A stretch of DNA of 64,000 nucleotides from Nitrospinales bacterium (GTDB lineage Bacteria; Nitrospinota; Nitrospinia; Nitrospinales; VA-1), in the NCBI GenBank assembly GCA_965262115.1, contig OZ253496.1:1504001-1568000 (forward strand). The letters are read 5' to 3'. Position numbers and translations under genes: made by a program. The number at the start of each line of letters is the position of its first letter. Within the stretch, counting starts at the first letter, position 1. The notes beneath the pieces are model-generated. The model did no database searches. It was not told the DNA's origin and was given only the letters and a program-made list of their open reading frames with translations. This document shows, one piece after another, positions 355 to 63,340 of the stretch.

Positions 355-448
355 CAGCGTGACGCTGGACCCAAAAGTAAAACATTCAGGCGAACAATAA
401 GTTCTCTTGGCTTGATGAATGGTTGTTCATTGCCCCTCTGGCGAAGAG
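355..448 (-). repeat. ~99-bp hairpin-ended element (family B)
   Basis: Reverse complement reads CTCTTCGCCAGAG-GGGCA..AACAA..CAAGCCAAGAGAAC..-CCAGCGTCACGCTG, the same layout as other copies. Confidence 0.7.
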
Positions 449-498
449 TGGCGAATTCCACCCACTAGCCATGGAGACAAATAGTCGATGCCTCGGCT

Positions 499-2277
499 TC
501 AATTACGTTTTAAGTGGTGATAGGAAGCACCGGCACCTTGCGGGATTCTTATATCATCGACCATATCCCTGATCTCATCCGGGGGTGGGGCGGTGACGCG
601 GCTGACCAGAATAGCGACCACGAAATTAAACACCATCCCTAAAGTTCCGATTCCTTCAGGAGAAATTCCAAACCACCAGTTTTCCGCTGAATTTATCGAG
701 GGATTGATGAACTTAAAATAGATGATATAACCGGCGGTGAAGGCGAGTCCGGTCACCATTCCGGCGATGGCCCCTTCTCGGTTCATGCGCTTCGAAAAGA
801 TTCCCATTAAAATAACCGGGAAGAATGACGAAGCTGCGAGGCCAAAGGCAAACGCCACCACCTGCGCGACGAATACGGGTGGGTGGGTACCAAAATATCC
901 AGCGATGGTGATGGCCAGTGCCGCCGACATCCGGGCAAAAAGAAGTTCCTGCTTGTCAGTAATATTCTTCAAGAACATTTTTTTCAAAAGATCGTGAGAA
1001 ATGGAAGTCGAGATGACCAGCAGCAACCCGGCGGCGGTGGAGAGTGCTGCGGCGAGTCCCCCTGCCGCGACCAGCGCGATCACCCAGTTGGGCAGATTGG
1101 CGATTTCCGGATTGGCCAGAACCATGATGTCGCGGTCGATATAGAGCTCGTTGCCATTATCGGTTGGTGAATTTGAAATTTTTCTTTCTCCTTCAGGGCC
1201 GCGTGCTTCCAGAAACTGCGGCTTCCCGTCGAACGCTTTTCCCGCAGAATATTGGATCTTTCCATCCTGATTTTTATCGATCCAGGCGATGAGGTTGGTG
1301 TTCTCCCAGTTCCTGAACCATGAAGGGGTTGCCTGATATTCGGCATTGTTAACGGTGTTGATGAGATTAACCCGGGCAAAAGAGGCCAATGCCGGAGCCG
1401 TGGTATAGAGTATGGCAATAAACATCAGCGCATACCCCGCAGAGATACGGGCATCTCGGACTCTGGGAACGGTAAAGAATCTTACAATGACGTGGGGCAG
1501 ACCGGCAGTGCCCACCATGAGCGCGGCGGTGATGAAGAACACATCGATGGTGGATTTATTACCCGCCGTATAAGCTGCAAATCCAAGTTCTTCAGATAAC
1601 TGATCGAGCCTGTCCAGAAGGTAGGTGCCGTCGGCCAGAGTACCGCCGAATCCCAATTGCGGCACGGGGTTCCCCGTCATCATCATCGATATGAAGATGG
1701 CAGGAACCAGAAACGCAAAAATCAAAATGCAGTACTGCGCTACCTGGGTGTAGGTGATTCCCTTCATGCCACCAAACACGGCATAAAAAAATACAATGGC
1801 CATGCCAATTAAAACACCGGTGGTGATTTCCACTTCGAGAAAACGGGAGAAAACGATTCCTACCCCGCGCATTTGGCCCGCCACATAGGTGAACGAAACA
1901 AATAAAACACAAACAACGGCGACCCCCCGGGCAATGTCGGAATAATAACGGTCCCCAACAAAATCGGGAACGGTGTATTTACCGAACTTGCGCAAATAGG
2001 GCGCGAGGAGTAATGCGAGCAAAACATAGCCTCCAGTCCACCCCATCAGGTAAACGGCGCCATCGCGGCCGATGAAAGAGATGATGCCCGCCATGGAGAT
2101 GAAAGATGCGGCCGACATCCAGTCGGCGGCTGTCGCCATGCCGTTGGCGAGTGGCGGAACGCCTCCACCGGCGACATAGAAGTCGTCGGTGTTCCCGGCC
2201 CGCGCCCAGATGGCAATGCCAATATAAAGCGCGAAGGTGGCCCCAACAAAAATAAAAGTTAAAGTCTGAACATCCAT
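499..2277 (-). CDS. Sodium:solute symporter, ActP-like (cation/acetate or monocarboxylate)
   Basis: NGMATAADWMSAASFISM, GTAGLPHVIVRFFTVP, many TM segments; paired with a small DUF4212-like gene. Confidence 0.9.
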   Translation of the reverse strand: MDVQTLTFIFVGATFALYIGIAIWARAGNTDDFYVAGGGVPPLANGMATAADWMSAASFISMAGIISFIGRDGAVYLMGWTGGYVLLALLLAPYLRKFGKYTVPDFVGDRYYSDIARGVAVVCVLFVSFTYVAGQMRGVGIVFSRFLEVEITTGVLIGMAIVFFYAVFGGMKGITYTQVAQYCILIFAFLVPAIFISMMMTGNPVPQLGFGGTLADGTYLLDRLDQLSEELGFAAYTAGNKSTIDVFFITAALMVGTAGLPHVIVRFFTVPRVRDARISAGYALMFIAILYTTAPALASFARVNLINTVNNAEYQATPSWFRNWENTNLIAWIDKNQDGKIQYSAGKAFDGKPQFLEARGPEGERKISNSPTDNGNELYIDRDIMVLANPEIANLPNWVIALVAAGGLAAALSTAAGLLLVISTSISHDLLKKMFLKNITDKQELLFARMSAALAITIAGYFGTHPPVFVAQVVAFAFGLAASSFFPVILMGIFSKRMNREGAIAGMVTGLAFTAGYIIYFKFINPSINSAENWWFGISPEGIGTLGMVFNFVVAILVSRVTAPPPDEIRDMVDDIRIPQGAGASYHHLKRN

Positions 2278-2279
2278 CT

Positions 2280-2600
2280 TTATTTTTTAGGTTCCTGATC
2301 GTGGTAATAAGAGTCGTCAGAGGCAAAATGGTCCCGGTCCTCATCCACCCCATATTTATGGTCGAGTTTGTTCATCTTGTAGATATAGATGAAGATGAGG
2401 ATGACGAAACAGAAAATGGAACCCTGTTGCGCCATCCAGAAACCGAACTTGAAGCCGAAGAAGCGAAACTGGTCCAGAACATCAACAAACAGGATTGCCA
2501 TGCCAAAGGAGACGATGAACCAGACGGATAGAAGGGAAAGGACGAGCCGGATATTTTCTTTCCAGTAGGCTTTGGCTTCGGGGCTGTGAGAATCGCTCAT
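2280..2600 (-). CDS. DUF4212-like small membrane partner of the symporter
   Basis: YWKENIRLV...GFWMAQQGSI motif; start taken at MSDSH (2600). Confidence 0.85.
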   Translation of the reverse strand: MSDSHSPEAKAYWKENIRLVLSLLSVWFIVSFGMAILFVDVLDQFRFFGFKFGFWMAQQGSIFCFVILIFIYIYKMNKLDHKYGVDEDRDHFASDDSYYHDQEPKK

Positions 2601-2856
2601 TGATTTTTCTCGAAAAGGGTTTGAAATAAACGAGCTAAAGCCTAACAAAACGGCGAGAGTTTTGACAATATCCAAATGACTGGCAGGTTGCTAAAAAACT
2701 CAACACAGATGTATTCTGAATGTATGGTATTCAACCTTTACCCCACCCCTGCTAAAGCAAAGAATTTAGCTTGTTAATCTATATTGAGGAGCTTCTGGGC
2801 TCTTCATTTTGAAATACTAGTAATATACTAATATCTACTAAACTAGTAATTAATGA

Positions 2857-2885
2857 TTGACATGTTTAAAATACTAAAATATAAT
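2857..2885 (+). promoter_or_regulatory. Consensus sigma70 promoter of the Fic gene
   Basis: TTGACA (2857-2862), 17 bp, TATAAT (2880-2885). Confidence 0.85.
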
Positions 2886-2919
2886 TAGTTAGTAGATAGA
2901 TTTTGATGGAGAAAGATTC

Positions 2920-4272: not shown

Positions 4273-4382
4273 TGATTTTTGAATATTTTTATTTCTTTCG
4301 AAGTAAAAATCCAAATTGGAAGGAGATATAACAGTGGCATGAAGTTAAGGACGGGGATATCACAACCTCCCTCGTCAGAGGG

Positions 4383-4469
4383 TGGTGCCGGAGGTCGGAA
4401 TCGAACCGACACGAGGTTGCCCTCGCAGGATTTTGAATCCTGTGCGTCTACCAATTTCACCACTCCGGC
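4383..4469 (-). tRNA. tRNA-Leu(CAA)
   Basis: GCCGGAG acceptor stem, anticodon arm CAGGA-TTCAAAA-TCCTG, long variable arm, GGTTCGATTCC, encoded CCA. Confidence 0.97.
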
Positions 4470-4703: not shown

Positions 4704-4798
4704 CCACTAGCCGTGGAGGCAGATAGCAAGGGCTCATTAAGCCGAGTTAACCAGTCGCCTGCTATTAAGACTATTGCAGTCGGCCCTACGCCGAGTAG
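4704..4798 (+). repeat. Family B element upstream of folD
   Basis: CCACTAGCCGTGG-AGGCAGATAGCAA..AAGCCGAGTTAAC..TATTGCA..GGCC-CTACGCCGAGTAG, directly before the folD RBS. Confidence 0.8.
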
Positions 4799-4808
4799 AA
4801 GGAGAATT

Positions 4809-7608: not shown

Positions 7609-8452
7609 ATGACAAATAAAAATATGAAAATCCGCCTCGATCAGTTATTGGTAAAAAAAACTCGCCAGCACGAGAGAAAAAGCCCACGCCATCATTCTAG
7701 CGGGCAAAGTAAGAATAAACGATACCGTTGCCGATAAACCTGGTCGACGGGTTCCTGAAGATTGTCTTCCCGTTATTCTTGGTGAACCCCAACCCTTTGC
7801 CAGCAGGGGCGGGGTGAAGCTGGATCACGCCTTAAAACAATTCCATGTTTTGCCCTCAGGAAAAACTGCTGTGGATGTGGGAGCCTCCACGGGCGGGTTT
7901 ACCGATTGCCTTTTGCAAAATGGCGCTGAAAAAGTGTATGCCGTGGATGTCGGCTACGGGCAGTTGGACTGGAAGCTTCGTAACGACTCCCGGGTCATTT
8001 GCCTGGATCGGAAAAATGCCCGAACCTTATGCAAAGAGGATATCGGGGAAATGCTGGACCTGGCTGTGATCGATGTGTCGTTCATCTCGCTCCAGATTGT
8101 CATACCCCCCTTGCTGGAAATGCTCAAGCCTGAAGGAGAGCTGGTTGCCCTGGTCAAACCTCAGTTTGAAGTCGGGAAAGAGGAAGTGGAAAACCGCGGC
8201 ATCATTAAAGACCCGGCCAAGCATATTCGGGTACTACTCGACTTGAACCGTTTTATTGAGGAAAAAGGCTGGGCGGTGACAGCGGTAACAGAATCCCCCA
8301 TTACCGGACAAAAAGGCAACCGAGAATTTTTGGTTCATTGCGTACACGGTTTTTACGGAAAACCTGTTGCGGAAGAGGCCATCCGCCAACTAGTCCTGAC
8401 ACCCGGCGAGCCGCCGGGGGCAAATAGCAAGGGCCTAATTGAGCCGAGATAA
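7609..8452 (+). pseudogene. tlyA: TlyA-family rRNA methyltransferase, frameshifted in an A8 run (7653-7660); may be a sequencing error
   Basis: KIRLDQLLVKK continues in another frame as LASTREKA..ILAGKV..SRGGVKL; DVGASTGGFTD, DVSFISL, KPQFE. Confidence 0.85.
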
Positions 8453-8599
8453 CTCTTTGCCAGCAAGTAAAGCGATTGCTCGCTGGCCCCACGCCGAGTG
8501 GGCGGAGAACCTCCGCAGGTAACTGGCAATAGCGGTTAAATGCGCTCTGAAAGTGTGGGTAGCTATAGAATGTTTGCTCGTTGACCCCACGCCTAGTGG
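8403..8599 (+). repeat. Two tandem family B elements (8403-8501, 8502-8599)
   Basis: Terminal hairpins CCGGCGAGCCGCCGG / CCACGCCGAGTGG and GCGGAGAACCTCCGC / CCACGCCTAGTGG, with inner TRGCAA..TTGCT. Confidence 0.8.
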
Positions 8600-9199: not shown

Positions 9200-9242
9200 A
9201 CGGGTAGAAGGGGTAATCTCGGGTTATGCAAAGCTCTCGTTT
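9200..9242. repeat. 43-bp exact copy of 12781-12823
   Basis: ACGGGTAGAAGGGGTAATCTCGGGTTATGCAAAGCTCTCGTTT at both sites. Confidence 0.9.
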
Positions 9243-9407
9243 GCGGGGGAAAAATTTAGACTCACTAAATTTTGAGGGTAACTGTAATGCTTTGAATTGT
9301 AATGTTTTGCGAAAATTAGTGGAAGGGGGTTGAAATTTCCCCCATTGCCTTGTTTATATGGGATATTACGGTCGAATCGATGAGTTCTTTAGCCGGGAGT
9401 CTAAAAA

Positions 9408-10166
9408 ATGTATAAATTGGTCCTTTTAAGGCATGGTCAGAGTCAATGGAACCTGGAAAACCGGTTCACCGGATGGACCGATGTTGACCTGACCGAGCAG
9501 GGAAAACAGGAAGCCGAAGCGGCGGGAAAACTTTTTCTCGATGAAGGTTATACTTTCGACATAGCCTACACCTCTGTTCTCAAAAGGGCGATTCGAACTT
9601 TATGGATCGTGCTGGATAAAATGGATTTGATGTGGATTCCGGTCACCCGCTCCTGGTATCTGAACGAACGCCACTACGGTGCCTTGCAGGGATTGGACAA
9701 AGCCGAGACCGCAGAAAAGCATGGCGCGGAGCAGGTAAAAATCTGGCGCAGAAGTTATGCCACTCCCCCTCCCCCGCTCCCTGACGATGACGACAGGTTG
9801 CCGTCCAAAGATCCACGTTACGCTGGGATACCCCAAAACAAGTTGCCCGCATCGGAAGCTTTAAAACATACGGTGGACCGGTTTCTGCCGTATTGGTTCG
9901 ACCAAATCGTGCCATTCATCAAAGCCGGAAAAAAAGTTTTGATCTGCGCGCACGGTAACAGCTTGAGAGCCATGGTCAAACATCTCGATCAGGTCAGCGA
10001 AGAAGATATCTTGGAATTGAATATCCCCACCGGCATTCCGCTGATCTATGAACTGGATGCGGATTTAAAACCCACCGATCACTATTATCTGGGCGACCCC
10101 GAAGCCGCTAAAAAAGCCGCCGAAGCCGTCGCCAACCAAGCCCGGGCCACGCCCGGAGGAAATTAG
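9408..10166 (+). CDS. gpmA: 2,3-bisphosphoglycerate-dependent phosphoglycerate mutase
   Basis: [34 protein letters not shown]. Confidence 0.97.
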
Positions 10167-10417
10167 CAGTAGCGGAATGGGTGGGCATCAAGTTGTCTTG
10201 GCTTGATAAGCAATTGCCCAATTCCCCCCTGATAAGGGGGGCTAGGGGGGTTGCTCAAAGGGCCCCTCTTTCTAAAGTACCCGTGCCGGGCACGAGGGCT
10301 TTGGAACAATATCACGAGGGGCTGGGGTGATTTGCCTCAAGGGGTTTTGTCATTGCGAACGAAGTGAAGCAATCCAGAAAGCCTGGATCGCCGCGCCACT
10401 TTGCGGCTCGCGATGAC
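10142..10417. repeat. Composite repeat cluster: family B (10142-10241), CCCTCTTT hairpin carrying a family A unit (10278-10316), REP-like family C (10349-10417)
   Basis: 10263-10358 is homologous to the reverse complement of about 21566-21661. Confidence 0.8.
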
Positions 10418-10818: not shown

Positions 10819-11007
10819 ACAGGATTGAGCGCAGTCCGTAGCAAATCCTCCGCTTTCGAACCCTTTTTAGTAATTAGCCCTCATTGCATTGCCGGAGGTT
10901 TTCAGATAAAATAATGCCGGATGAAAGACGGGAAGTAATTGTTGCACTTCTAAAAAACAGGAACTACAATTCTAAAAACTATAAATCAAAAGATATAGCC
11001 AAGTAGT

Positions 11008-12452
11008 GGGCCTGTTGCCCAAAGGGTTGCCGTGAAGGGTTGCTGATATTAATTTTGTGTATTTCTTACGAATTTTCTTTTCTAAATTGAAATCCCAAAA
11101 CCCAGATTCATTCCTCCCCAAGTTGAAGCCTGCAAGCAGTTTTTGAATCGTTGTACGACCTTCAGTGCATGACTGTGAATCGGTTTTTTCAGGTGTTGGA
11201 TCATTCGTTTGATGTTTTGAATGGATGCGGTCAGGTATTCTTGAATCTGGATCAGCCATAATCTTCGCCACCGTGCCCTTTTGAATCCCAAGGGCACCGA
11301 ATATGCGAATGACCGTTCCATAAGATGCTGTCTCGTTTTCAGGTCTTGTTTTCCTTTTGGGGTCTTTGCCATTGCGCGCATTTCTTCGAGGTCGTCCTGA
11401 CGATCAACCCGTTGGATCGTGCGTCCGGTTGCACTACGTGTGCATTGGGATTTTAGTTCGCAGGCATTACCGTCGTCTGCTCTGGCGGCGTAATACATAC
11501 GCTGCTCTTTTAACCGGCAGGTCTTCAGCCGCAAGCGTTTGCCCACCGGGCAGATATAGGTATCGCTTTCAGGGTCGAATGTAAATGCGCTGTTGGAAAA
11601 TATTCCATGACGTTTGCCGTCTGTTTCCTGACTCTTTTTCAGGTCGGGCATATGGGGTTGAATGCCCATATCTTTGCAGGCAAGAAAGTTTTCCACCGTA
11701 CCGTATTTACTGTCGGCCACTGCGGTCTTCGCTGACATCCCGGTATTTTCCTGGTGCGCTTCCAGCATGGCACTGAACCGATGCGAATCGTCTACATCGC
11801 CACGTGTCACCTCAGTCGTGGTGATCACTTCCGCCGCCGGATCCACCGAACGATGTACTTTATAACGCAAACGCGAACCCCCGCGCGGCACAATCGCCGC
11901 ATCCGGAGCGGTCGTAGAACGGTAACGAACATTAACTTCTCTGCGTACCCGCCGATTATTGGATTCCTCCGGTTCGCCCAGTCTCTCACAAAGTTTCTCG
12001 TAACCCTTGGTTTCGATAATACGCTGGGATTAGGAATCACAGTGTCCAGACCATAACCCAGAAACCAGAGCCAATCCATCCGCTACGGAAGCGTACGCAT
12101 CAACTCACGTTCGGAACGAACGTTGTAAAAGATGAGCAGCAACATCAGTTTTAGCATCACCGGAGGCGGAACCGATTCGTTGCCATTGTGGCCGTACTTA
12201 TCCTTTACTTGTTCATACACAAAATCCAGGTTCAAAACGGAAGAAACTTGCCGCAACTCGTGATCTGGAGGACTCCGATCTTCAAGATTCACGGCCTAGT
12301 TAAAGAATACGCTCTGGGACGGGGTTTCGCGTTTCATCATGGGAATGACTCCCGGAAAAAAAGATTAAAACTGTAGAAGAACAAAAACTAGCCAGATAAA
12401 TTATAATCCTTATAAACCCACGCTTCTATCAAAAGGTTTGGGCAACAGGCCC
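11008..12452 (-). mobile_element. Degenerate IS1182-family insertion sequence
   Basis: Perfect 16-bp TIRs GGGCCTGTTGCCCAAA (11008-11023) and TTTGGGCAACAGGCCC (12437-12452) enclosing transposase fragments. Confidence 0.9.
11082..12340 (-). pseudogene. IS1182-family transposase pseudogene
   Basis: N-terminal SVPPPVMLKLMLL..SERELM..WLWFLGY; C-terminal VADSKYG, YICPVG, MERSFA; in-frame stops, frameshift and internal deletion. Confidence 0.88.
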
Positions 12453-12467
12453 AAAAGACTTGACAGG

Positions 12468-12819
12468 GAGAGCTTTGCATAACCCGAGATTACCCCTTCT
12501 ACCCGTTCCGGGCATGAAGTTTAAGGAAGAGGACATCACATACCCGTTCTACCCCTGCGGGGCACGAACCGATGGAAGAAATATCACACGCTCATGATGT
12601 TATAGGTTGGGGATATCACAGGCTCGCGAAGGTTAAGGAAAAATATCACGCCTTCGTCACCTTGTTCCTCAGAATGACAAAATGGCCCAGTATTGTCATG
12701 CTGAGCTAGTGATATTTGACCTTTGAATTCTTGCCCCGTAGGGGTATGTGATATCCTCTTCCTTAAACTTCATGCCCGGAACGGGTAGAAGGGGTAATCT
12801 CGGGTTATGCAAAGCTCTC
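12468..12819. repeat. MITE-like composite with 78-bp inverted arms and six nested or tandem family A units
   Basis: 12468-12545 is the reverse complement of 12742-12819 with one mismatch. Confidence 0.85.
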
Positions 12820-13225
12820 GTTTCCAGAGGTAATTTTATGGGTCCGCAGCAGGGTTGAGGCGAATAACGGTCTGCATTGAAGATTAAAAGTAAATCGACA
12901 AAATGACAGTTGGTGAGTTTTTCAGGAGGTTCCTTCCTGTCCCACAAAAAATAGCTTTAATTCTGGGGAGAATTAGTCCAATTATACCCCCTCAAGCCCG
13001 ATCTCCCAAGTTTCGAGCATCCTCTGAGCTTGATTCGCGGTCTATTTCCAGAGGTTTCTGCCCTTTTTCAGAGTGGCAAGTGATTTTTTCCTGTTAAGAC
13101 GGGTTTTTAGTGGAAAACCGACTCGTCAGGCCTTATTTTGGTGGGTTTCGTATTGTCACACTATATTGAATATGTTAGTCTGAGCTACAATTTGGTTCCC
13201 TTTTTGGGGACTTCCCAAAAAATCT

Positions 13226-19132: not shown

Positions 19133-19234
19133 CCGGGCCACGCCCGGTGGAAATATGGCAATGACCCGTTAAGCCGAGAGAACTTTTTGCTCGCCAGTGA
19201 AAGTTATTGCTCATTGAATCCAGCGTCACGCTGG
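19133..19234 (+). repeat. Family B element filling the dxr-ispF spacer
   Basis: CCGGGCCACGCCCGG..TGGCAA..AAGCCGAGAGAAC..TATTGCT..CCAGCGTCACGCTGG. Confidence 0.8.
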
Positions 19235-19733: not shown

Positions 19734-20979
19734 CCTTAACGAACGCATCGTAATCACAGGAATTGGGTTGACCTCCCCCAACGGCAACAACCTGAAAGAA
19801 TTCCGACAAAACCTGCTGAACGGGGTCTCAGGAGTGCAACATTTCGAAACCCGCTATATGGGGAAGGTCCACGCCGGAGTCTGCGATTTTGATGAACTGA
19901 AATACCAGAAGAAAAAAGAACGCCGTCGCGGCACCCGGGCCGGCTCTGTCGCCATCTACTGTTCGCAGGAAGCCATTGCCGATGCCGGAATTGATCTCGA
20001 AGCGATCGACCGTTCTAAAGTCGGTGTCTATCTCGGCGTGACCGAGCATGGCAATGTCGAGACCGAGAACGAAGTCTACAACATCAGCCAGTATGGTTAT
20101 GACACCAAGTTCTGGTCGCACCATCATAATCCCCGCACAGTGTCCAACAATCCGGCCGGCGAAGTGACCTTGAACATGAAAATCACCGGGCCGCATTACA
20201 CCATTGGCGCGGCCTGCGCCGCCGGGAATATGGGCGTCATTCAGGGTCTGCAGATGTTGCGGCTGGGGGAAGTCGATCTCGCATTGGTGGGCGGGGTGTC
20301 TGAGAGTATCCACACCTTCGGCATCTTTGCCAGTTTCAAAAGTGAGGGGGCTCTGGCCGAGCACGAAGACCCGACCAAAGCCAGCCGTCCGTTCGATAAA
20401 AACAGGAACGGCATCGTCTGTTCAGAGGGTGGTGCCGTCTACACGCTTGAACGATTATCGGATTCGCAAAAACGTGGCGCAAAAATCTACGGTGAAATCG
20501 TCGGTTACGCCACCAACTCCGACGCGATCGATTTCATCCTGCCCGACCCGGGCCGACAGGCTCAATGCATACGCATGGCGCTGGATAAGGCCGGACTCAA
20601 ACCGGGCGACATCGATATCCTCAATTGCCATGCCACCGCTACACAGATGGGAGACATTCAGGAGGCCAAGGCCATCCGCGAAGTGTTTGGCGATAACAGT
20701 AAAACGCGCATCAATAACACCAAAAGTTTTATCGGTCACACCATGGGTGCGGCGGGCACGCTGGAACTCTCCGGCAACCTGCCGACGTTTGAAGATAACC
20801 TGGTCCACCCCACCATCAATCTGGATGACCTCGACCCGGAATGCGCCTTGAACCACCTCGTCGCCAACAAACCGGAAAAACTCCCCTCCGTCGACCTCAT
20901 CATGAACAACTCCTTCGGCATGTTCGGCATCAATTCCGTCCTCATAGTGCGGAGTCCCTCCGCTGGGAACTTGCAATGA
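19726..20979 (+). CDS. Beta-ketoacyl-ACP synthase (divergent FabB/FabF-like)
   Basis: Cys-His-His triad: [31 protein letters not shown]. Confidence 0.92.
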
Positions 20980-21047
20980 CTCTTTCTAGCGGACAAACAG
21001 TCTTTTTTGCCCATTGGGATATAACTATTTGCCCCCACGGCGAGTGG
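20949..21047 (+). repeat. Family B element overlapping the KAS 3' end
   Basis: GCGGAGTCCCTCCGC..TTGCAA.....GCCC-CCACGGCGAGTGG, 99 bp. Confidence 0.7.
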
Positions 21048-21479: not shown

Positions 21480-21774
21480 GTCATCGCGAGCGACTGCAAG
21501 GGGCGCGGCGATCCAGTCTTTCCGCTTCGGGGCATGAAGGCAAATGAAGAATTTCACACAGTTGCTCGCGATGACAACCCCTTGTTGTAAATCACCCCAG
21601 CCCCTTGTGATATCACCTTCCATAAACTTCATGCCCGGTACGGGTACTTTGAAAAAGAGGGAGCACCCCATCAAGCCGAGAAAAACGATTGCTAGCAGTA
21701 AAACGCTATTGCATTTGTACCCCTCCGGGGCACGAAAACTGAGGAAGAATATCACGGCCCCAGCGTCACGCTGG
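21480..21774. repeat. Composite repeat cluster: family C, CCCTCTTT hairpin and partial family B, each carrying a family A unit (21520-21558, 21606-21646, 21718-21756)
   Basis: Direct comparison with copies at 10.3, 39.5, 43.4 and 53.4 kb. Confidence 0.85.
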
Positions 21775-24635: not shown

Positions 24636-24758
24636 ACACCTTTCTTCCCACTTGTCTTGCGGATCATACCTTGAGAAAATACATGATAACTATTGTTAAA
24701 GGGGCAAAAGCACCTGCTAGTTTAATGGGTATTGACCTATTGGCCCCACGCCGAGTGG

Positions 24759-31334: not shown

Positions 31335-31432
31335 CCTGCTCGCCGCAGGAGCAACTTGGCAAAAATTTTTCAAGCCGGGGAAATGGTTGTCCGCTAGAGG
31401 AAGCGATTGCTCGCTGGCCCCGCGCCTAGCGG
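31335..31432 (+). repeat. Family B element between rplT and pheS
   Basis: CCTGCTCGCCGCAGG..TGGCAA..CAAGCCGGGG..GATTGCTCGCTGGCC-CCGCGCCTAGCGG. Confidence 0.8.
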
Positions 31433-34528: not shown

Positions 34529-34639
34529 GTCATCGCGAGCGACTAATTAAGGAGCGTGGCGATCCAGGTTTTAACCAAAGGTTTAAATTCCAGACTCAGA
34601 ACCTGGATTGCTTCGTCGCCGGTGGTTCCTCGCAATGAC
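34529..34639. repeat. REP-like family C element, uninterrupted copy
   Basis: GTCATCGCGAGCGAC..GGAGCGTGGCGATCC..GGATTGCTTCGTCGC..TCCTCGCAATGAC. Confidence 0.85.
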
Positions 34640-34754
34640 GATTGAATTGTTTTTCATTTCCCCGGGACGATGTCCGGAAAATGAAAAGGCACCATACGCA
34701 CCGGCATGATGCCCAGCTTAGGCCGTTGAGGCCGATTAAAAAATTAAAACCCGC

Positions 34755-34859: not shown

Positions 34860-34931
34860 TAGGCACGGGCGGTTTCGAACCGCCGACCCCTTGCATGTCA
34901 AGCAAGTACTCTACCCCTGAGCTACGCGCCT
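34860..34931 (-). tRNA. tRNA-Val(GAC), CCA not encoded
   Basis: AGGCGCG..TAGCTCAG, anticodon arm CTTGC-TTGACAT-GCAAG, GGTTCGAAACC. Confidence 0.96.
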
Positions 34932-35145
34932 GAAAAATCAGTGAAGGCTATTCTAAATGCAGTTGCTCATTTGGTCAAGCCCCTACTGGGCGTAGGGCCA
35001 GCACTGCATTGCTCGTATAGCGGACGGAACACTCAAGCGCAATACTTTAATTGATCGTCCTCCTTACAAGAGGGAAAATGGCGACCCTATTTTTACTTGG
35101 TAATTATCACTCCAGTTATGCTAAAAGGTGGTGGTCGTCTGTTGT

Positions 35146-39506: not shown

Positions 39507-39517
39507 ATGAACAAATC

Positions 39518-39634
39518 GTCATCGCGAGCGACTGTGTGAAATTCTTCATTTGCCTTCATGCCCCGAAGGGGTAAAAGGAGCGCGGCGATCCGGGTTTCTG
39601 GATTGCTTCGTCGCGGTTAGCTCCTCGCAATGAC
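39518..39634. repeat. Family C element carrying a family A unit (39535-39573)
   Basis: Left part near-identical to 43352-43425. Confidence 0.88.
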
Positions 39635-39682
39635 GGGTTATAAAAAGTTCTTGTTTTTGGCGGCACAGAAGTCATCATAAGA

Positions 39683-40845: not shown

Positions 40846-40866
40846 GTATCTATTGTAAGATGGCCT

Positions 40867-40950
40867 CACTTCCCTTCGCTGGCATGATCCAGATCAGGTT
40901 CAAAGGGTCGTCCTGTTTTAGGACTCTCAGTTCAAAAACGCCCCCAGTGT
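40867..40950 (-). ncRNA. TPP riboswitch
   Basis: GGGGG..CTGAGA..ACCCTTTGAACCTGATCTGGATCATGCCAGCGAAGGGAA upstream of thiSGEC. Confidence 0.95.
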
Positions 40951-41023
40951 TCGTGACGAGTCTAGGTTATTTCATATTTCCTACAAGTCAACAATTATTG
41001 ACGTAAAAATAAAAAAGAGTAAT

Positions 41024-43337: not shown

Positions 43338-43351
43338 CCCCTTCAGTATTC

Positions 43352-43507
43352 GTCATCGCGAGCGACTGTGTGAAATTCTTCATTTGCCTTCATGCCCCGA
43401 AGGGGTAAAAGGAGCGTGGCGATCCAGACTTCTGGATTTACCCTTTCAGGGCACGAAAGCTTGGGAAGAATATCTCGGCTTCGTCGCTGTTGGCTCCTCG
43501 CAATGAC
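43352..43507. repeat. Family C element carrying two family A units (43369-43407, 43439-43477)
   Basis: Removing both 39-mers restores the arms seen at 34529-34639. Confidence 0.9.
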
Positions 43508-43560
43508 GTGCTATGCAAGGGTTTCCCTGTCAAGGGGTGTCAAGCTGGTAGAGGTTTTTT

Positions 43561-52151: not shown

Positions 52152-52315
52152 AGGTCCTCGCTGGTATTAATTTAAAACTATTATAACGATCAAACCCCCG
52201 TTATTTCAATCATATCACCCACTGACGCGGGGAGCAATGGGCAATAGGTATAAAGCGGTCAGGTGTTGTTGAAGGCTGAAAAAGTCGAGTTAGTTGTCTG
52301 TGGCGCCTTGCTGCT

Positions 52316-52775: not shown

Positions 52776-52965
52776 GGTCCTCCATATCAGGAGAGGTGAC
52801 TTGTAAGGCCGAGATAACTCGTTGCTTGCTTGATGGGTTACTCTTATTGCCACCGGCGGCTCGCCGGTTGGCCTCACGCCGAGTGGTGGAGAAATAACTT
52901 TAACTTAGCCGCTAAGATAGCTAAAATGTGATAGTGGGTCAAACCGTTTCCCCAATATCTCGTTT

Positions 52966-53286
52966 ATGGACAGAAAGCTAAAACAAAGCTCAAGCGGGAA
53001 CTGGTCAGAAATTAGGTCGGTTCTTTTTCAGTCTCTTCCTGATGAAATGTTTTCCAAGGCGAATCAACAGGAATGGCTGACCTATCATTGGAACCTGGTA
53101 GTGGGAAAAGAAATTTCAGGGGTTTCCACCATTGACAAGGTGGCGCGGGGGATACTCCATGTACGGGTAGAGGGTAAGGAGTGGGTGCCAGTTTTGGATC
53201 TGTTAAAAAGCAAAATCGTGCAGGAAATAAATAGCAGGGCAGGTGAACCGTTGTTAAACGGTATTGTGTTTAAGGCAGTGGCCTGA
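52966..53286 (+). CDS. DUF721/DciA-like protein
   Basis: W..VVG..I, G.L.V.V...W...L...K..I...IN pattern. Confidence 0.75.
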   Translation: MDRKLKQSSSGNWSEIRSVLFQSLPDEMFSKANQQEWLTYHWNLVVGKEISGVSTIDKVARGILHVRVEGKEWVPVLDLLKSKIVQEINSRAGEPLLNGIVFKAVA

Positions 53287-53331: not shown

Positions 53332-55305
53332 ATGAAAGCTATAGCCTGTGAATTAAAGTCTATTTGCAGAATCAGCCAGCGGAGAGCCTCCGCAGGCGTA
53401 ATGTTTTTCCTTGGCCTTCGTGCCCCGGAGGGGTACAAATTGCAATATCTTTCCCTGGCTAGAAATGATTTTCCCGGTTGGGCAAGCCATTGCCCAGTTG
53501 CCTCCACGGCTAGTGGGCGGAGAGCCTCCGCTGCAGGTTTATTCATGCTCCTGTTCCTGGCGAGTTGCACGACAATACCCGGAGTCCCGGATTCAACGAC
53601 TTCTGACTTGTCTTCTTCCTATGCGGTTTTGTCGTTCGAAAAGAAAAAACAACTTTCCGGGAAACTGGATACGCGGGATCCCCGCTCCTATTACCACTAC
53701 CTGCTGGCCCTGAAGGCGGAAAAGGGCTACCAGATGGATCAGGCCGCTGTGCATTATAAAGAAGTGGTCCAGTATGATCCGGAAACAGAAAGGTTCCATG
53801 AAAAATGGGTTCGCCTGTTGCTCCGTACCGGTCAGTTGGATGAGGCCGTTGAAGCCGGTCAAAATGCACTGGCCCGTTTTCCCAACAACGAGGAAATTTT
53901 GATGGTCCTGGGGGATATTCTGGCCAGTCAGGGGAAAGCGGAAGAGGCCATCACGTATTATGACCGGATTAGCCGGGTTGCCTCTGGAAATGCCCGGGCT
54001 CCGTTACTGAAAGGTTCTTTGTTAGAGGGGTTGGAGCGATTTAACCAGGCTTTTGAAGAGTATAAGAAAGCGGCGTTGATAGAGCCGAAAAATCCTCTGG
54101 TGCAGTTTTATCTGGGCCGGGCCTATTTGCGGGCCAACCAGTTGCCGGAGGCCGAAAAGAGTCTTGAAACGGCAGTTTCCCTGAAGCCCAACCTTCTCCA
54201 GGCCCGACACCATTTAGCCTGGGTGCTCGAACGTCAGGGCAGAACCGTTGAAGCGTTGAAAGAATATGGGCTATTGTTAAAGCTGACACCGGATAACGAA
54301 TATATTAAAAATCGGGTTTCACAGCTTCACTCTTCGGATTCTTTGGGTCAGAGCCCCTCGCAGGGTTTTGAAGCCATTCCCTCCGGCTTGGCAGAGCAAC
54401 CCGATATCCATATGCGTATCGCAACGATATATTTTGAGCAAACTCTATATATGAGAGCATTGGATGAGTTTCAGCTTGTTCTGGCCAAACACGATTACAA
54501 GGATCCGCATGTTCTCATGGCCCGGATTTATGAAACTCACGGCCGCCTGGACAAAGCCGTTGAGGAGTTTGAAAAACTCAGAAAGCTGGAACCGCAATCC
54601 CTGGACCTTCTCCTTTATACGGCCCGGCTCTATAGCTTGATGAAAAAAACACAAAAATCGGTGGGTCTGCTCAATGAGGCCGTTGCAATAGAACCGGAGA
54701 ACGACCAGATACATCACTCTCTGGCACTGGCCTACATGGCCCTCAAAAAAAATGAGGAGGCCATTGCAACCATGCGGAAAGCTTTGGCTTTGAACCCTCA
54801 AAAAGATTCCTACTATTTTGATCTGGGCGCCCTGATGGAAAAAGCCGGAGATTACCAAGGGGCCATTGCAAATATGAGGCTGGCGATTGAGTTAAATCCT
54901 TTGCACTATAACGCACATAATTTTTTGGGGTACATGTATGCGCTGGAAGGACACGACCTTGACCAGGCCCTTGAGCATCTGAAAAAGGCCCTGACCATCC
55001 AGCCTCGCAACGGCTATTTCCTGGACAGCCTGGGTTGGATTTATTTCAAAAAAGGCGAATCGGAAAAAGCTTTAACGCAAATTCAGAAGGCCTTGATCTA
55101 CACCGAGCCGGACCCGGTACTTTATGACCACCTTGGGGATATTCTGTTCTCTCTGGAAAATTACGATGAAGCCAATTGGGCATGGAGAAACAGCCTGTTT
55201 CTCACTGTGAATCCAAAAGACGACCTGGGTGGAGAAGCGCCGGACCCGCAAACACTTAAGAATAAAATTAATAAATCGAAAAGGCTTTTACAAAAGAGCT
55301 ATTAA
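53332..55305 (+). CDS. TPR lipoprotein; 5' end carries an in-frame repeat insertion, true start uncertain
   Basis: LASC lipobox, many TPRs, NFLGY, DSLGW, DHLGD; precedes LolB-like gene and ispE. Confidence 0.88.
   Translation: MKAIACELKSICRISQRRASAGVMFFLGLRAPEGYKLQYLSLARNDFPGWASHCPVASTASGRRASAAGLFMLLFLASCTTIPGVPDSTTSDLSSSYAVLSFEKKKQLSGKLDTRDPRSYYHYLLALKAEKGYQMDQAAVHYKEVVQYDPETERFHEKWVRLLLRTGQLDEAVEAGQNALARFPNNEEILMVLGDILASQGKAEEAITYYDRISRVASGNARAPLLKGSLLEGLERFNQAFEEYKKAALIEPKNPLVQFYLGRAYLRANQLPEAEKSLETAVSLKPNLLQARHHLAWVLERQGRTVEALKEYGLLLKLTPDNEYIKNRVSQLHSSDSLGQSPSQGFEAIPSGLAEQPDIHMRIATIYFEQTLYMRALDEFQLVLAKHDYKDPHVLMARIYETHGRLDKAVEEFEKLRKLEPQSLDLLLYTARLYSLMKKTQKSVGLLNEAVAIEPENDQIHHSLALAYMALKKNEEAIATMRKALALNPQKDSYYFDLGALMEKAGDYQGAIANMRLAIELNPLHYNAHNFLGYMYALEGHDLDQALEHLKKALTIQPRNGYFLDSLGWIYFKKGESEKALTQIQKALIYTEPDPVLYDHLGDILFSLENYDEANWAWRNSLFLTVNPKDDLGGEAPDPQTLKNKINKSKRLLQKSY
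53379..53531 (-). repeat. Family B element with nested family A unit (53397-53435), bounded by two GCGGAGAGCCTCCGC copies
   Basis: 15-mers at 53379-53393 and 53517-53531. Confidence 0.85.
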
Positions 55306-57068: not shown

Positions 57069-57144
57069 TGGGGCGTCGTCAAGTGGCTAAGACACAGGAT
57101 TTTGATTCCTGCATTCGGAGGTTCGAGTCCTCCCGCCCCAGCCA
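57069..57144 (+). tRNA. tRNA-Gln(TTG)
   Basis: TGGGGCG, anticodon arm CAGGA-TTTTGAT-TCCTG, GGTTCGAGTCC, CCA; ispE-tRNA-prs synteny. Confidence 0.97.
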
Positions 57145-58135: not shown

Positions 58136-58207
58136 AAAATCAGGCTTTGGCGTTGCATATTATGCGTAGTGCGCTCATAGCTTTTATCTAATGGATGGGA
58201 GTATAGA

Positions 58208-58873: not shown

Positions 58874-58881
58874 AATAAATA

Positions 58882-59439: not shown

Positions 59440-59444
59440 ACGGA

Positions 59445-61520
59445 ATGTTAACGGAACATAAAGGTGAAATGATTTTCATCGGATTTGCCATGATCTTGTA
59501 TCTGGTGATGGCCGCTTTTGATGTGTCGCAGAAATTTGTTTATCTGGCGGTCTTATTTGGGTTATTCGGGCTCGTCATAGCCTGGAAACTTTTTGAAAGC
59601 GTGGATGATGAACCGGCCGGCAATGAAAAAATGACCGAAATCGCCGATGCCATCCATGAAGGTGCAATGGTTTTCCTGGCCAGGGAATATAGAATACTGG
59701 GTTATTTTGTGGGAGGGGTGTTCCTTCTGCTGTTGGTTTTGATTTCCGTACAGAGTGGTTTGTGGATCGGTCTGTGGACAGCCATTGCTTATGCAGTAGG
59801 GGCTGGGTGTTCCATGCTTGCCGGATTTTTCGGCATGAACGCGGCGACCACCTCCGGGGTACGAACTTCTCAGGCTGCTTTGGATGGCGGTCAGGCTAAA
59901 GCCCTCAACATCGCTTTCAACGGCGGTGCGGTGATGGGACTTTGTGTGGCGAGTTTGGGCCTGATCGGGGTTGGCGGATTGTTCACCCTGTTTGGCCGTG
60001 GAGAGTCTATCGGAGTCATCAGCGGATTTGCCATGGGCGCCAGTTCCATCGCGCTGTTTGCGCGCGTGGGCGGAGGCATCTACACCAAAACTGCCGACGT
60101 TGGTTCCGACCTGGTTGGTAAAGTGGAAGCGGGAATCCCGGAAGACGATCCAAGAAACCCGGGGGTTATTGCTGACAACGTCGGAGACTGTGTGGGCGAT
60201 ACTGCAGGTTTGGGAGCAGATATTTTTGAGTCCTACTGCGGTTCCATGATTGCTACCATTGCTCTCGGTGCAGGCATGGCAACCATGAAGTTTGAATACA
60301 TGGCCCTGCCGATCCTGGTTGCCATGATCGGCCTGGTGGCTTCTGTCCTGGGAATCCGGGCCATGAGTGCTTTGGGAAACATGGATCCTTCCGCCGCACT
60401 GCGCAATTGTACTTTTATCAGCGCCGGGGCCATGTTGTTCGTCACCTTTTTTCTGATTAAGGTTATGGGACTGCCTTCTGGCGTTTTTGTCGCCTTGTTG
60501 TTTGGTTGTCTGGCAGGTATTGGTATTGGCCTGATCACCGAGTATTACACGGCTGGCAAACCAGTTATCCGCATTGCAGAGGCAAGTGAAACAGGGGTTG
60601 CGACAGTAATGATCACGGGTCTTGCGATAGCAATGGAAAGTTGTGTTGTGCCTATCCTGATCATTGCGTTGACGATTTTTGTGAGTGCCGAATTCGCCGG
60701 TCTCTATGGTGTGGCGCTTGCGGCCGTGGGTATGCTGGCAACAGTAGGCATCACCATGTCGGTCGATGCTTACGGACCGATTGCGGATAACGCAGGCGGA
60801 ATCTCTGAAATGGCTGGGCTGGGGGAAGAAACCCGTAAGATTACTGATGGACTAGATCAAGTGGGTAACACCACGGCCGCTATCGGTAAAGGTTTCGCCA
60901 TTGGTTCTGCGGCTCTGACGGCACTGGCCTTGTTTGCCGCGTTCACCCAGGCGGCAAACATTGATTCGATTGATATTACCAAAACGACAGTCATCATTGG
61001 TGTCTTTTTGGGTGGGGCGATTCCCTTCTATGTCGCCGCTCTCACCATGACTTCGGTGGGCGAGGCGGCCATGAAAATGGTTGAAGAAATCCGCCGCCAG
61101 TTCAGAGAGATTCCTGGGTTGATGGAAGGCACGGCAAAACCAGACAGTGCCCGTTGTATCGATATCAGCACTCAGGCGGCCTTGAGAGAAATGGTCGCCC
61201 CGGGTGTAGTGGCTTTCCTTAGTCCCATCATTGTCGGTTCAGTGCTTGGAGCAGAAGCTCTGGGAGGTATGCTGATGGGTGCCACGCTTACTGGCGTTTT
61301 GCTGGCGTTGTTTATGTCTAATGGTGGCGGTGCCTGGGATAACGCGAAAAAATATGTGGAAGCGGGTAACCTGGGTGGTAAAGGTTCCCCTGCTCACCAC
61401 GCTACAGTAGTTGGAGATACGGTTGGAGATCCGCTGAAAGATACATCGGGTCCGGCGATGAACATCCTGATCAAATTGATGTCTATCGTCTCCCTGGTGA
61501 TGGCGCCGTTTTTCCTGTAA
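59445..61520 (+). CDS. hppA: Membrane-bound ion-translocating pyrophosphatase, probably K+-dependent Na+-type
   Basis: [42 protein letters not shown]. Confidence 0.95.
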
Positions 61521-61539
61521 CTGAAATAAGGTTTAAGTT

Positions 61540-61576
61540 AAAGGGATGGGGGCTTGCCCCCATCCCTTTTCTTTTT
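61540..61576 (+). terminator. Rho-independent terminator
   Basis: AAAGGGATGGGGG-CTTG-CCCCCATCCCTTTT followed by a U-rich tail. Confidence 0.88.
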
Positions 61577-61593
61577 AGAAAGGAGTCTGTTTC

Positions 61594-62370
61594 GTGCTGT
61601 TAGGAATTCATGACTTTATAAATTCACAGCCTCTTTTGGAGCCTTTGAGGAAACGGGCTCTGGATATCCGTACCGACTCCCCGGCGCGGCTGGCCGATCA
61701 ATTATCTGGCGGAGAGCTGGATATGGCCATGATTCCCGCCATCGAATATTTAAAGCAGGCCGATCGGTTTCGACTTTTACCGAACATTTCCATAGCCTCC
61801 AGAAACAAGGTGGGAACCGTTTTGCTGGTCTCCAAGGTTCCTCTTAATTCTATCCGCTCTTTGGCACTGGATGACCGTTCGAGAACTTCGGTCGCGTTGA
61901 TCCAGGTGCTTTACTCGAAAGTGTTTGTGACCGGACTCAAACTGGAGAGCCAGGAGCCCGATCCGGAAAAGATGCTCGAAAATCACGATGCCGCATTGAT
62001 CATTGGCGATCAGGCTCTGGGGTTTTCCAAAGAAGGCGTGTCAGTCTATGACCTCAGCGAAGAGTGGTTCAACCAGACAGGCAAAACTTTTGTTCACGCC
62101 GTGATGGCAGTTCGGGAAGGTGTCAAGGTGGAGGGTGGAATTATTCAAACCCTGCTGGATGCAAAGCAGGAAGGAATGGAAAACCTGGATACGATTGCCG
62201 AGAGTCAGGCAAAGAAAACGGATCATCCTGTGTCTTTATTGCAGGACTATCTCAAAAATAAAATTCGTTACGATTTTGGCGAAGAGGAAATAGAAGGGCT
62301 CGTGCATTTTCAGTCCCTTTGCCACGAGACCGACCTGATTCCACAAAAATTTCCCTTAAAGTTTGTTTGA
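61594..62370 (+). CDS. mqnA: Chorismate dehydratase (futalosine menaquinone pathway)
   Basis: N..PL, SRTSV.L, ALIIGD.AL, DL.EEW..TG..FV.A. Confidence 0.88.
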   Translation: MLLGIHDFINSQPLLEPLRKRALDIRTDSPARLADQLSGGELDMAMIPAIEYLKQADRFRLLPNISIASRNKVGTVLLVSKVPLNSIRSLALDDRSRTSVALIQVLYSKVFVTGLKLESQEPDPEKMLENHDAALIIGDQALGFSKEGVSVYDLSEEWFNQTGKTFVHAVMAVREGVKVEGGIIQTLLDAKQEGMENLDTIAESQAKKTDHPVSLLQDYLKNKIRYDFGEEEIEGLVHFQSLCHETDLIPQKFPLKFV

Positions 62371-62387
62371 GGATGGGCTCCGAAAAC

Positions 62388-63134
62388 TCAACTCGGCTTT
62401 TGTTTTAAATAATCCCAACCCCAATTAAACCCTTCTTTAATAAACTGGCCTAATTTCTGCACAGAAGATTCAACGAAGTCGAGATAAGCCTGGACGGCTT
62501 CAGTGCGTTGTGGTTCGTCCGGCTCTGATGAGGAAGGTTCTGGAGAAGCGATCACTTCAGTCACCACTGCCTCGGCTACATTCTGTTTTAAAGTCGGCTC
62601 AGGTTCTTCGAGGCTTGCGGTTTCCTGCAGTTCTTCCGCCACATCTTCCTCTTCGGGAGTCTGATCAAAATCGTTGCCAGAGAGGTGGGCCGCTGATGTG
62701 GACGGTGGGCCGCTGATACGTGTTTCCTGAATTTCAGGAGGCGAGACGGTAGCAAGCTTGGCAATTTCAGCCTCAGGAACCTCAGCGGGTTCTGAAATTT
62801 TAGCAACCGTCTCGTCCATAAAGGGCGGTGTTGGGGTGACCAATGCCAGTGGTTTGGAAGGAGCTGATTTTGGGGAAACGAAGTTTAAAATTTCAGCGGG
62901 AATGAGGTTGTTGAAATATAGATAGCCGCCCGAACCTATCAAAACAAGAACCAGGAGCAAAAAGACTTTCCCTGCGCCGGATTTTTTCTTTTCTTCTGGA
63001 GGCAGAAACTCCTGTTCCTCAAACCCGGGATCGGATTCAGAATCTTCCGGCGTCTCCACCGCAACAGGGAGAGCTTCTTCTTTTTCTAGAGAGTCTGAGT
63101 CTTGCGGTTTTTCTGATTCGCTGTTTTCTTGCAT
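62388..63134 (-). CDS. Acidic, Pro-rich single-pass membrane protein
   Basis: KKKSGAGKVFLLLVLVLIGSGGYLYF TM; start taken at MQENS because upstream sequence is a repeat. Confidence 0.65.
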   Translation of the reverse strand: MQENSESEKPQDSDSLEKEEALPVAVETPEDSESDPGFEEQEFLPPEEKKKSGAGKVFLLLVLVLIGSGGYLYFNNLIPAEILNFVSPKSAPSKPLALVTPTPPFMDETVAKISEPAEVPEAEIAKLATVSPPEIQETRISGPPSTSAAHLSGNDFDQTPEEEDVAEELQETASLEEPEPTLKQNVAEAVVTEVIASPEPSSSEPDEPQRTEAVQAYLDFVESSVQKLGQFIKEGFNWGWDYLKQKPS

Positions 63135-63138
63135 AAGA

Positions 63139-63340
63139 CCACTAGCCGTGGAGGCAGATAGCAATAAATCGTTGGGCCGAGCAGCCAATGGAGCGCAAGT
63201 TAAAGATATTGCAATTTTCCAGAGGCGGTGCGGCGTCCACTCGCCGTGGAGGCAACTGGAAAAAACTTCATCCAGAAGCTCAATGACCCTCGTTCGCCCT
63301 ATAACGTACCAACCTTTTTCCCGTGGCGGTGCGCCACTAG
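63139..63340 (+). repeat. Two tandem family B-like elements
   Basis: CCACTAGCCGTGGAGGCAGATAGCAA (26 bp identical to 4704-4729) and CCACTCGCCGTGGAGGCA at 63237. Confidence 0.78.

Follow-up and report, generated by a model that had tools for sequence, protein, structure and literature searches.

Family B, a hairpin-ended intergenic repeat of Nitrospina-type genomes, is probably a BIME-like mosaic element without a RAYT

Introduction

The 64-kb stretch of DNA analysed here (the window) carries, at several of its gene boundaries, an element of about 100 bp with a hairpin at each end. The locus raises two questions: whether this element (family B) is a genuine repeat family, and how its copies arise. 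The window belongs to a Nitrospina-type genome; Nitrospina is a genus of marine nitrite oxidisers. The mobility of REP/BIME-type repeats is generally attributed to RAYT transposases. A sequence-only reading of the window had described an element of fixed geometry with interchangeable hairpins, and with spacers unrelated between copies. The architecture, size and hairpin set are borne out, all far above chance, but the claim about the spacers and some of the listed copies are not.

Results and Discussion

Size and distribution of the family

The profile was seeded with the window copies and then iterated with nhmmer over the whole genome (G000; 2.68 Mb, single contig), and the relatives G003, G006, G007, G009, G011 and G013 were used for comparison. 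Family B is a real repeat family of about 300 copies, occupying roughly 1% of G000: the search returned 344 non-overlapping loci, with 292 at E<1e-4 and 93 near full length. When restricted to intergenic DNA (546,495 bases, both strands), it gave 602 matches below an E of 0.01, of which 472 were below 1e-4, as against 0 in each of five dinucleotide-preserving shuffles of the same bases. An HMM built from the window copies alone gave 359/234 matches on the real intergenic DNA and 0/0 on one shuffle. Arrays of 2–6 units hold 66 of the 292 units.

A model search over 120 genomes of the phylum found family B in all 22 genomes of the genus and in 12 of 24 from three sister genera, and in none of 50 genomes from other families of the phylum. 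No description of family B was found among the Nitrospina papers searched.

Copies in the window

Ten of the eleven copies originally listed match the model; the segment 52218–52314 does not. Complete units, each consisting of hairpin, core and hairpin, are located on the plus strand at 4704–4798 (65.5 bits, just upstream of a gene start), 19133–19234 (abutting the upstream stop codon) and 31335–31432 (61 bits, between convergent genes), and on the minus strand at 10142–10241 (42 bits) and 20949–21047 (45 bits, overlapping the end of the upstream ORF). Two further complete units form a plus-strand doublet, 8403–8501 (78.9 bits) and 8502–8599, the second of which has a divergent core and has been added at the 3' foot of the hairpin before it.

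Three of the listed spans are family B only in part. At 355–448, the left two-thirds of the element are present (383–448, minus strand, model positions 2–69, E 1.8e-7). The span 53379–53516 contains a nearly complete unit at 53430–53516 (minus strand, 50.5 bits), but a 40-nt module from a different family (53395–53435) takes the place of its far end, and this module and another hairpin make up the remainder. At 63139–63340, a 98-nt plus-strand unit (about 63139–63236) lies against a pre-existing hairpin, is absent from G013 and is directly followed by a 33-nt left-end fragment of family B (63237–63269). The four proposed partial copies fared unevenly. That at 21672–21774 corresponds to a match at 21655–21723 (plus strand), which covers the right two-thirds of a core; beyond it lie a 40-nt module belonging to another family and a hairpin. 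That at 52808–52886 corresponds to a weak match at 52798–52885 (plus strand, model positions 29–97, E 2.2e-5), but 24690–24758 contains a terminal hairpin only and 34983–35063 gives no match. The window thus includes four minus-strand copies; strand had not been assigned before.

Core and end hairpins

The family-B unit consists of a conserved core of ~65 nt with fixed spacing and one small GC hairpin on each side. The fixed geometry persists in the larger alignment, where profile positions 18 and 82 are 62–65 nt apart in 159 of 191 copies. The core spacers, described earlier as unrelated, instead follow a degenerate consensus, with a median pairwise core identity of 57% (5–95% range, 46–70%). 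Conservation along the core is strongly uneven in a pattern that is kept across genera, which might point to a role for the host and not to mobility. The conserved blocks are maintained at the level of sequence and not of base pairing, and the sister genera share them; a protein-bound site, as first suggested, is a possible reading.

The end hairpins are drawn from several types and occupy a fixed offset on each side of the core (the modal offset in 85 of 146 left and 87 of 155 right hairpins), always with mirror polarity; they are interchangeable, as had been proposed. The three commonest types lie at a family-B end in 123 of 145, 39 of 46 and 45 of 59 of their intergenic occurrences. Loop polarity mirrors the side, as, for example, in one type that, a single exception aside, is found 25 times on the right in one loop form and 9 times on the left in its complement. 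The two ends of a unit are usually of different types, and the commonest type occupies both in only 4 of 192 copies.

Shuffle tests, in which copies were treated without correction for relatedness, showed that covariation is confined to the hairpins. Paired cells amount to 86.4% in the left hairpin (z 7.4) and 90.2% in the right (z 3.9). The long palindrome of the core shows no covariation, with z of −0.9 and −2.5, at or below the shuffle expectation; in an independent tally, 2653 cells were paired where 2708.7 would be expected. The covariation test that had been suggested as a check is thus positive for the ends but not for the long core stem. A small inner core hairpin reached z 4.0 with relatedness uncontrolled, and two of its pairs are unpaired in 57 and 43 of 128 cells. 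RNAalifold found no structure in 171 cores, and mutual information over all column pairs was mostly made up of neighbouring-column and subfamily signals.

Genomic placement

Placement at gene boundaries was confirmed genome-wide: 290 of the 292 copies are intergenic, as compared with about 20% intergenic DNA in G000 by our own crude gene calls. In tandem gene contexts, the copies lie nearer the upstream stop codon, at a median relative spacer position of 0.24 (Wilcoxon p 4e-7), and 43 of 170 reach the end of the preceding ORF.

This position just 3' of stop codons is consistent with a host element in the first place, i.e. a cis-acting RNA that stabilises 3' ends or terminates transcripts, or a platform for protein binding, maintained by selection, for which spread would be secondary. 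The fixed spacing, the strong conservation of core blocks into the sister genera and the maintenance of the hairpins as structure also agree with such an element. However, copies are oriented with and against the upstream gene equally often (85 and 85) and show no replichore bias (Fisher p 0.41). Single copies fold no better than shuffles (z +0.5 to −2.1, 8 folds), and no T-run follows the hairpins in the copies inspected. Rfam at gathering scores matched only a TPP riboswitch and three tRNAs in the window, and 20 family-B copies at E up to 1 had no match. Additionally, orthologous sites in close relatives are empty, differently filled or inverted. A primary host function is thus considered unlikely.

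Gain, loss and exchange of units

Whole units of 98–106 nt are present or absent between genomes that are 94–96% identical, as established by a gap-by-gap comparison spanning 836.5 kb of one relative. Among the mapped sites, 58 from G000 and 48 from G013, clean absences number 4 and 2, and 13 and 12 sites, respectively, are alignable as conserved; under our own strict thresholds and crude gene calls, 41 of the 58 and 34 of the 48 were classed as complex or replaced. The junction ambiguity at the clean absences is 1–2 nt in the four G000 cases, and 0 nt and 17 nt in the G013 cases. Longer microhomology was considered and rejected: 4–5 nt resembling the hairpin foot were seen by eye at three insertions, and the strict count was 1–2 nt.

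Several units were gained in a single lineage. A 101-nt unit (G000:2045153–2045244) has clean empty sites in all five relatives compared. The second unit of the doublet (8502–8599) is missing from its site in G013, G007, G003, G006 and G011, and is 96–97% identical to copies at G000:1140666 and G000:2089436; the first unit (8403–8501) is also found in G007, and its site is nearly empty in G006 and G011. The unit at G000:1686261–1686357, which the G013 site lacks, matches G000:2164395–2164491 with 100% identity over 106 nt. In all, two lineage-specific units have sources elsewhere in G000 that are 96–100% identical. Since the sources of these recent copies still exist, the spread is replicative. 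One gain is common to G000, G013 and G007 only. For one G000-only unit, the best source in G000 is at most 70% identical, and simple copy-and-paste therefore does not explain it. Cut-and-paste of an old copy to a young site, which predicts a near-identical copy in relatives, found no support: the best full-length matches in five relatives are 73–77% identical.

Recent activity of the family is low. Near-identical core pairs are rare (33 of 18,001 at ≥90% identity), with about 8–10 independent near-identical copy pairs. Existing copies exchange segments and undergo unequal crossing-over. For example, G007 has a hybrid of two adjacent units, and at the 8403 site, G013 has an element whose right part agrees with the G000 4704 element at 52 of 56 positions, as compared with 44 of 57 for its own orthologue. 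At the site of 19133–19234, G013 contains a copy in the opposite orientation and G011 an empty site of 8 nt.

Search for a mobilising enzyme or parent element

One explanation of such a unit is a REPIN, i.e. a doublet of REP sequences moved by a REP-associated Y1 tyrosine transposase (RAYT), which would since have been lost from G000 or become too divergent to detect. The inverted hairpin ends with compensatory stem changes, the lack of target duplication and the presence of Y1 genes in 5 of 18 genus members are in keeping with this explanation, as is the addition of units beside existing hairpins, which recalls the published models of BIME amplification (PMC3333891). However, G000 has no match to Y1 (PF01797, E≤0.01), Y2 (PF04986) or TnpB (PF07282), and PF01797 is likewise unmatched in G013, G006 and G007, all of which, like G000, are nearly closed and element-rich. 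The Y1 proteins of relatives are about 330 aa long, and one of them gives only a 14-bit match in G000, to an unrelated 485-aa frame. A RAYT gene flanked by the element, suggested earlier as something to look for, was not found among relatives either: six Y1 loci are flanked neither by the element nor by its hairpins, apart from one weak partial match, and G009 has a Y1 gene yet only 11 family-B matches. The different hairpin types at the two ends and the long stem without covariation also do not fit a strict REPIN, and a GTAG-like tag at the hairpin foot is absent from the profile consensus and conservation line, as judged by reading rather than by a separate motif count. A REPIN with a lost RAYT is accordingly improbable; the broader assignment to REP-type hairpin-ended repeats with conserved geometry stands.

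MITEs, deletion derivatives of DDE insertion sequences that are mobilised in trans via their terminal inverted repeats, would also yield intergenic units of ~100 bp with mirror-symmetric ends, and G000 does encode DDE and DEDD transposases. In the four clean G000 cases, however, target-site duplication never exceeds 2 nt, and no pair split by cargo was found among 13 left-only and 4 right-only partial matches. The ends of the IS5/IS1182-like element in the window are unrelated to family B, and those of IS110-like elements differ too. Moreover, recognition of several types of end hairpin would be unexpected for one transposase. A MITE origin is very improbable.

No mobilising enzyme was found in G000, and how units are copied can thus only be inferred. 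Copying of new units likely passes through a single-stranded hairpin intermediate and takes place at the feet of existing hairpins or next to them; it would proceed by template switching or recombination over short homologies during replication, or else through a trans-acting nuclease. Recombination between copies may then produce the swappable ends.

Relation to known repeats

REPINs and their RAYT were reportedly described by Bertels and Rainey in 2011. Like a REPIN, family B is an inverted doublet of REP-like hairpins gained or lost as one unit; unlike a REPIN, its arms usually differ in type and it has no RAYT. Correia/NEMIS, ERIC and the neisserial NIMEs are bacterial MITEs or mosaic repeats. 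They share with family B non-coding intergenic units of ~100–150 bp, inverted ends and variability between strains, but for family B neither target duplication nor a parent insertion sequence was found.

The closest parallel is provided by the BIMEs of E. coli, as described in PMC3333891, where BIME-1 consists of a REP and an inverted REP with a conserved long linker L between them. Both families comprise two inverse small palindromes and a conserved linker, are extragenic, with hundreds of copies that take up about 1% of the genome, are found both singly and in tandem arrays, vary in copy number and linker between strains, and are associated with insertion-sequence targets. In contrast to the imperfect palindromes of 30–40 nt in the BIMEs, the family-B hairpins are perfect stems of 13–15 nt of several unrelated types. 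The linker of ~65 nt is the best conserved part of family B, the GTAG tetranucleotide that lies 5' of the palindrome foot in BIMEs (PMC3333891) is not seen, and G000 has no TnpA-REP/RAYT gene (REPtron). Binding of IHF, gyrase or Pol I is a further mark of E. coli BIMEs.

G000 also contains a 24-copy IS110-family element that is always inserted at the same position within a small repeated hairpin module, similar to the "type 1" association of REP-targeting IS110-family insertion sequences with REP (PMC1525189). The module struck in G000 is the 40-nt family, not family B, and only adjoins or replaces family-B ends.

Conclusions

Family B is probably a BIME-like non-coding mosaic repeat without a RAYT, in which two inverted GC hairpins bracket a conserved linker of ~65 nt and whose 98–106-nt units are gained and lost between genes. 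Any host role might be that of RNA hairpins at 3' ends, for example, or of a putative protein-binding platform in the linker. A bolder and rather doubtful alternative is a self-propagating, chromosome-structuring element, not a RAYT relic, that needs no transposase of its own to multiply but relies on replication, where hairpins would guide template switching and short homologies would allow copying, with the linker as a putative docking platform for a protein specific to this bacterial family.

Every member of the genus devotes ~1% of its genome to family B, and copying of its units has occurred since divergence from a relative that is 94–96% identical, in nearly closed genomes without an HUH transposase. 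This calls for either an enzyme not yet known or a way of copying that needs no transposase, and either would bear on how small repeats colonise genomes. In practical terms, the elements break short-read assemblies, as seen in contigs from four DNA runs, which break at the repeats, and they mark hot spots of intergenic change.

Identification and genomic placement of family B

Family B, an intergenic repeat of about 99 bases in which two hairpins surround a core, was searched for in G000, the genome that holds the window at C1:1504001-1568000 (one contig, 2,684,264 bases, 46.8% G+C). Eleven copies from the sequence-only reading, four of them flipped to the opposite strand, served as the seed alignment, from which a profile was built and then iterated over the genome. 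After opposite-strand duplicates were dropped, the iterated profile located 344 loci; of these, 292 reach E<1e-4, and 93 are close to full length. On both strands of the intergenic DNA (546,495 bases, as delimited by our own crude gene calls) it gave 602 hits with E<0.01, of which 472 had E<1e-4, versus none in each of five dinucleotide-preserving shuffles of the same DNA; the first profile, derived from the window copies only, gave 359/234 hits on intergenic DNA versus 0/0 on one shuffle. The sequence-only reading had named equal matching of shuffled intergenic DNA as grounds for abandoning the family; since the shuffles yielded no hits, its own test does not refute it. Ten of the eleven listed copies are matched by the model, three of these over part of the listed range only, together with two of four listed partial copies. 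No significant match was found at the remaining copy (52218-52314) or the remaining partials (34983-35063 and 24690-24758).

Genes were called with a codon-usage heuristic of our own, in which stops are exact and starts inexact. The proposed placement at gene boundaries holds for 290 of the 292 copies, which are intergenic and lie between tandem (170), convergent (75) or divergent (45) genes. In the tandem contexts, the copies are closer to the upstream stop, at a median distance of 31 nt and a median relative position of 0.24 (Wilcoxon p 4e-7); 43 of the 170 abut the end of the ORF or run into it. Orientation shows no bias with respect to the upstream gene (85 to 85), nor is there a replichore bias (Fisher p 0.41). 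Most units are solitary (226); the other 66 form arrays of two to six, in which neighbors are about -2 to +4 nt apart. The cumulative GC-skew minimum of the genome is at about 1.45 Mb, shortly before the window, and a DciA-family gene is located at 52966-53286.

Architecture and conservation

The core is about 65 nt long, with blocks kept in 80–99% of the copies interleaved with positions near 40–50%, and its consensus is itself a near-palindrome. The distance between profile positions 18 and 82 is conserved as predicted, its four commonest values (62–65 nt) accounting for 159 of 191 copies, and every sub-interval has a single dominant length. The spacers, which had been described as unrelated between copies, instead follow a degenerate consensus; cores compared pairwise have a median identity of 57%.

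A single small, perfect hairpin flanks the core on either side at a set distance; among those detected, the modal offset applies to 85 of 146 on the left and to 87 of 155 on the right. The end hairpins are of several types, and the two ends of one unit mostly differ in type. Most intergenic examples of five types in G000 sit at family-B ends (123/145, 39/46, 45/59, 12/21 and 18/22), and these hairpins are therefore parts of family B rather than free-standing repeats. The loops obey a polarity rule, such that the left-end form is the reverse complement of the right-end form; in one type, 25 right ends compare with 9 left ends in complementary form, with one exception.

Covariation was assessed on 132 matches from the window, three further G000 stretches and 836.5 kb of the relative G013, fitted to a model of sequence only. 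Paired cells amount to 86.4% in the left hairpin and 90.2% in the right, and compensatory pair types are present; one hairpin pair shows four pair types, plus 10 unpaired among 56 cells. In per-helix shuffles, which ignore the relatedness of the copies, the covariation test proposed earlier was positive for the end hairpins (z 7.4 left, 3.9 right) and negative for the outer and long core stems (z -0.9 and -2.5). A separate count over 171 G000 cores gave 2653 paired cells versus 2708.7 expected, and single copies, in eight folds, had no advantage over shuffles (z +0.5 to -2.1). What is conserved is thus structure in the end hairpins and sequence in the core, as judged by shuffles that take no account of the kinship of copies.

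Distribution and relation to known repeats

The model matches all 22 genomes of the genus, with counts that are minimum values and with only 7–12 matches in three of them. Within the same family, three further genera gave matches in 2/6, 1/1 and 9/17 genomes, and the conserved core blocks of these sister genera are those of family B. None of 50 genomes from eight other families of the phylum was matched.

In the part of the BIME literature drawn on here (PMC3333891), BIMEs are described as inverted REP pairs with linkers between them, BIME-1 as a single-copy form with a long, well conserved linker, and REPs as carrying a GTAG tag and being processed by TnpA-REP. Family B likewise consists of an inverted hairpin pair and a conserved linker, but differs from that description in having neither the GTAG tag nor a TnpA-REP enzyme. 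We therefore class it as BIME-like and do not count it among the BIMEs. It falls outside the definition of a REPIN and outside that of a MITE. There is no match in Rfam, and no description of such repeats for Nitrospina was found in the literature searched, which excluded most subscription journals.

Neighboring repeats and other features

A separate 40-nt hairpin module occurs in the window at 10278-10318, 12500-12652, 12747-12787, 21520-21646, 21718-21758, 39533-39573, 43367-43479 and 53395-53435, and some modules substitute for or adjoin a family-B end. A broken IS5/IS1182-like element at 10996-12464, in which DUF772 and DDE_Tnp_1_6 occupy different reading frames, is embedded among such modules; its ends are unrelated to those of family B, and at least four near-identical copies are present in G013.

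The IS110-family transposase domain has 24 matches in G000 (for example C1:657822-658247, 736698-737123 and 1744654-1745079), all of them outside the window, versus one in G013, and most of the genus has none. The corresponding unit is about 1.2 kb long, and about 22 of its copies are at least 98% identical. The unit opens with the initial bases of the 40-nt module in 21 of 24 cases and ends in the module's second stem half in 24 of 24, followed by its tail or another module; this insertion sequence therefore sits in the module loop, the same siting as in REP-targeting IS110 members.

Other dispersed repeats in the window (39516-39604 with 43350-43438; 34603-34640, 39598-39635 and 43471-43508; 9200-9252 with 12781-12833) form pairs 89–96% identical and bear no relation to family B. 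The segment 9173-9318 is missing from G013 and from the contigs of run X5. A TPP riboswitch (40854-40955, minus strand, at gathering score) and three tRNA genes (4386-4469, 34860-34931 and 57069-57141) are also present.

Turnover between relatives

Synteny of the window is shared with G013 (flanks 94–96% identical) and with five further relatives, G007, G003, G006, G011 and G015. At 19133-19234, a unit oriented opposite to that of G000 occupies the site in G013, G007 and G003, G006 contains a G000-type unit plus additional modules, and in G011 only 8 nt separate the two genes; the G000 and G013 units share 24 of 32 and 37 of 49 positions. The site at 8403-8599 is almost empty in G006 and G011, contains the first unit alone in G007 and a unit with a different left hairpin in G003, and in G013 is occupied by a different core, a hairpin nested inside a hairpin and two 40-nt modules.

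Sites were compared over 836.5 kb of G013 under strict thresholds of our own. By these thresholds, the 58 G000 units whose flanks on both sides could be mapped uniquely comprise 13 alignable as conserved, four clean absences and 41 complex or replaced, and 48 G013 units comprise 12, two and 34, respectively. Five of the clean absences have a junction ambiguity of 0–2 nt, and the sixth has one of 17 nt.

Mobilization and spread

The suggestion that a RAYT/TnpA gene might be flanked by the element was not borne out. The Y1 tyrosine transposase domain (PF01797) has no match in G000, G013, G006 or G007; it is present in 5 of 18 genus members, where family B was not found flanking the Y1 genes, and its presence does not correspond to family-B copy number. 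Searches of G000 with a relative's Y1 protein, PF04986 and PF07282 returned nothing relevant, and no split family-B copy with cargo was found in that genome.

A complete 101-nt unit at G000:2045153-2045244 is absent from five of five relatives, which have identical clean sites, and was therefore acquired in the G000 line; candidate sources for it reach at most 70% identity in G000 and 73–77% in those five genomes. The unit at G000:2049748-2049839 is an older gain: G000, G013 and G007 share it, and G003, G015 and, judging from BLAST coordinates, G006 lack it. Three new units are positioned at the foot of a hairpin that was already there. Exchange between existing units also occurs: a G007 hybrid of two neighboring G000/G013 units is the result of unequal crossing-over, and the G013 unit at the 8403 site, whose right part matches the G000 unit at 4704 at 52 of 56 positions versus 44 of 57 for its own orthologue, is the result of exchange between copies.

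Two lineage-specific units have living sources. The unit at G000:1686261-1686357 is identical to G000:2164395-2164491 over 106 nt, with identity stopping at most 4 nt from the unit ends, and the unit at window 8502-8599 is 96–97% identical to two other loci, the identity extending in all three 26 nt into the end of the preceding unit. The spread of family B is therefore replicative. Copying may proceed via hairpin-dependent template switching or short-homology copying; alternatively, a putative nuclease would be the copying agent.
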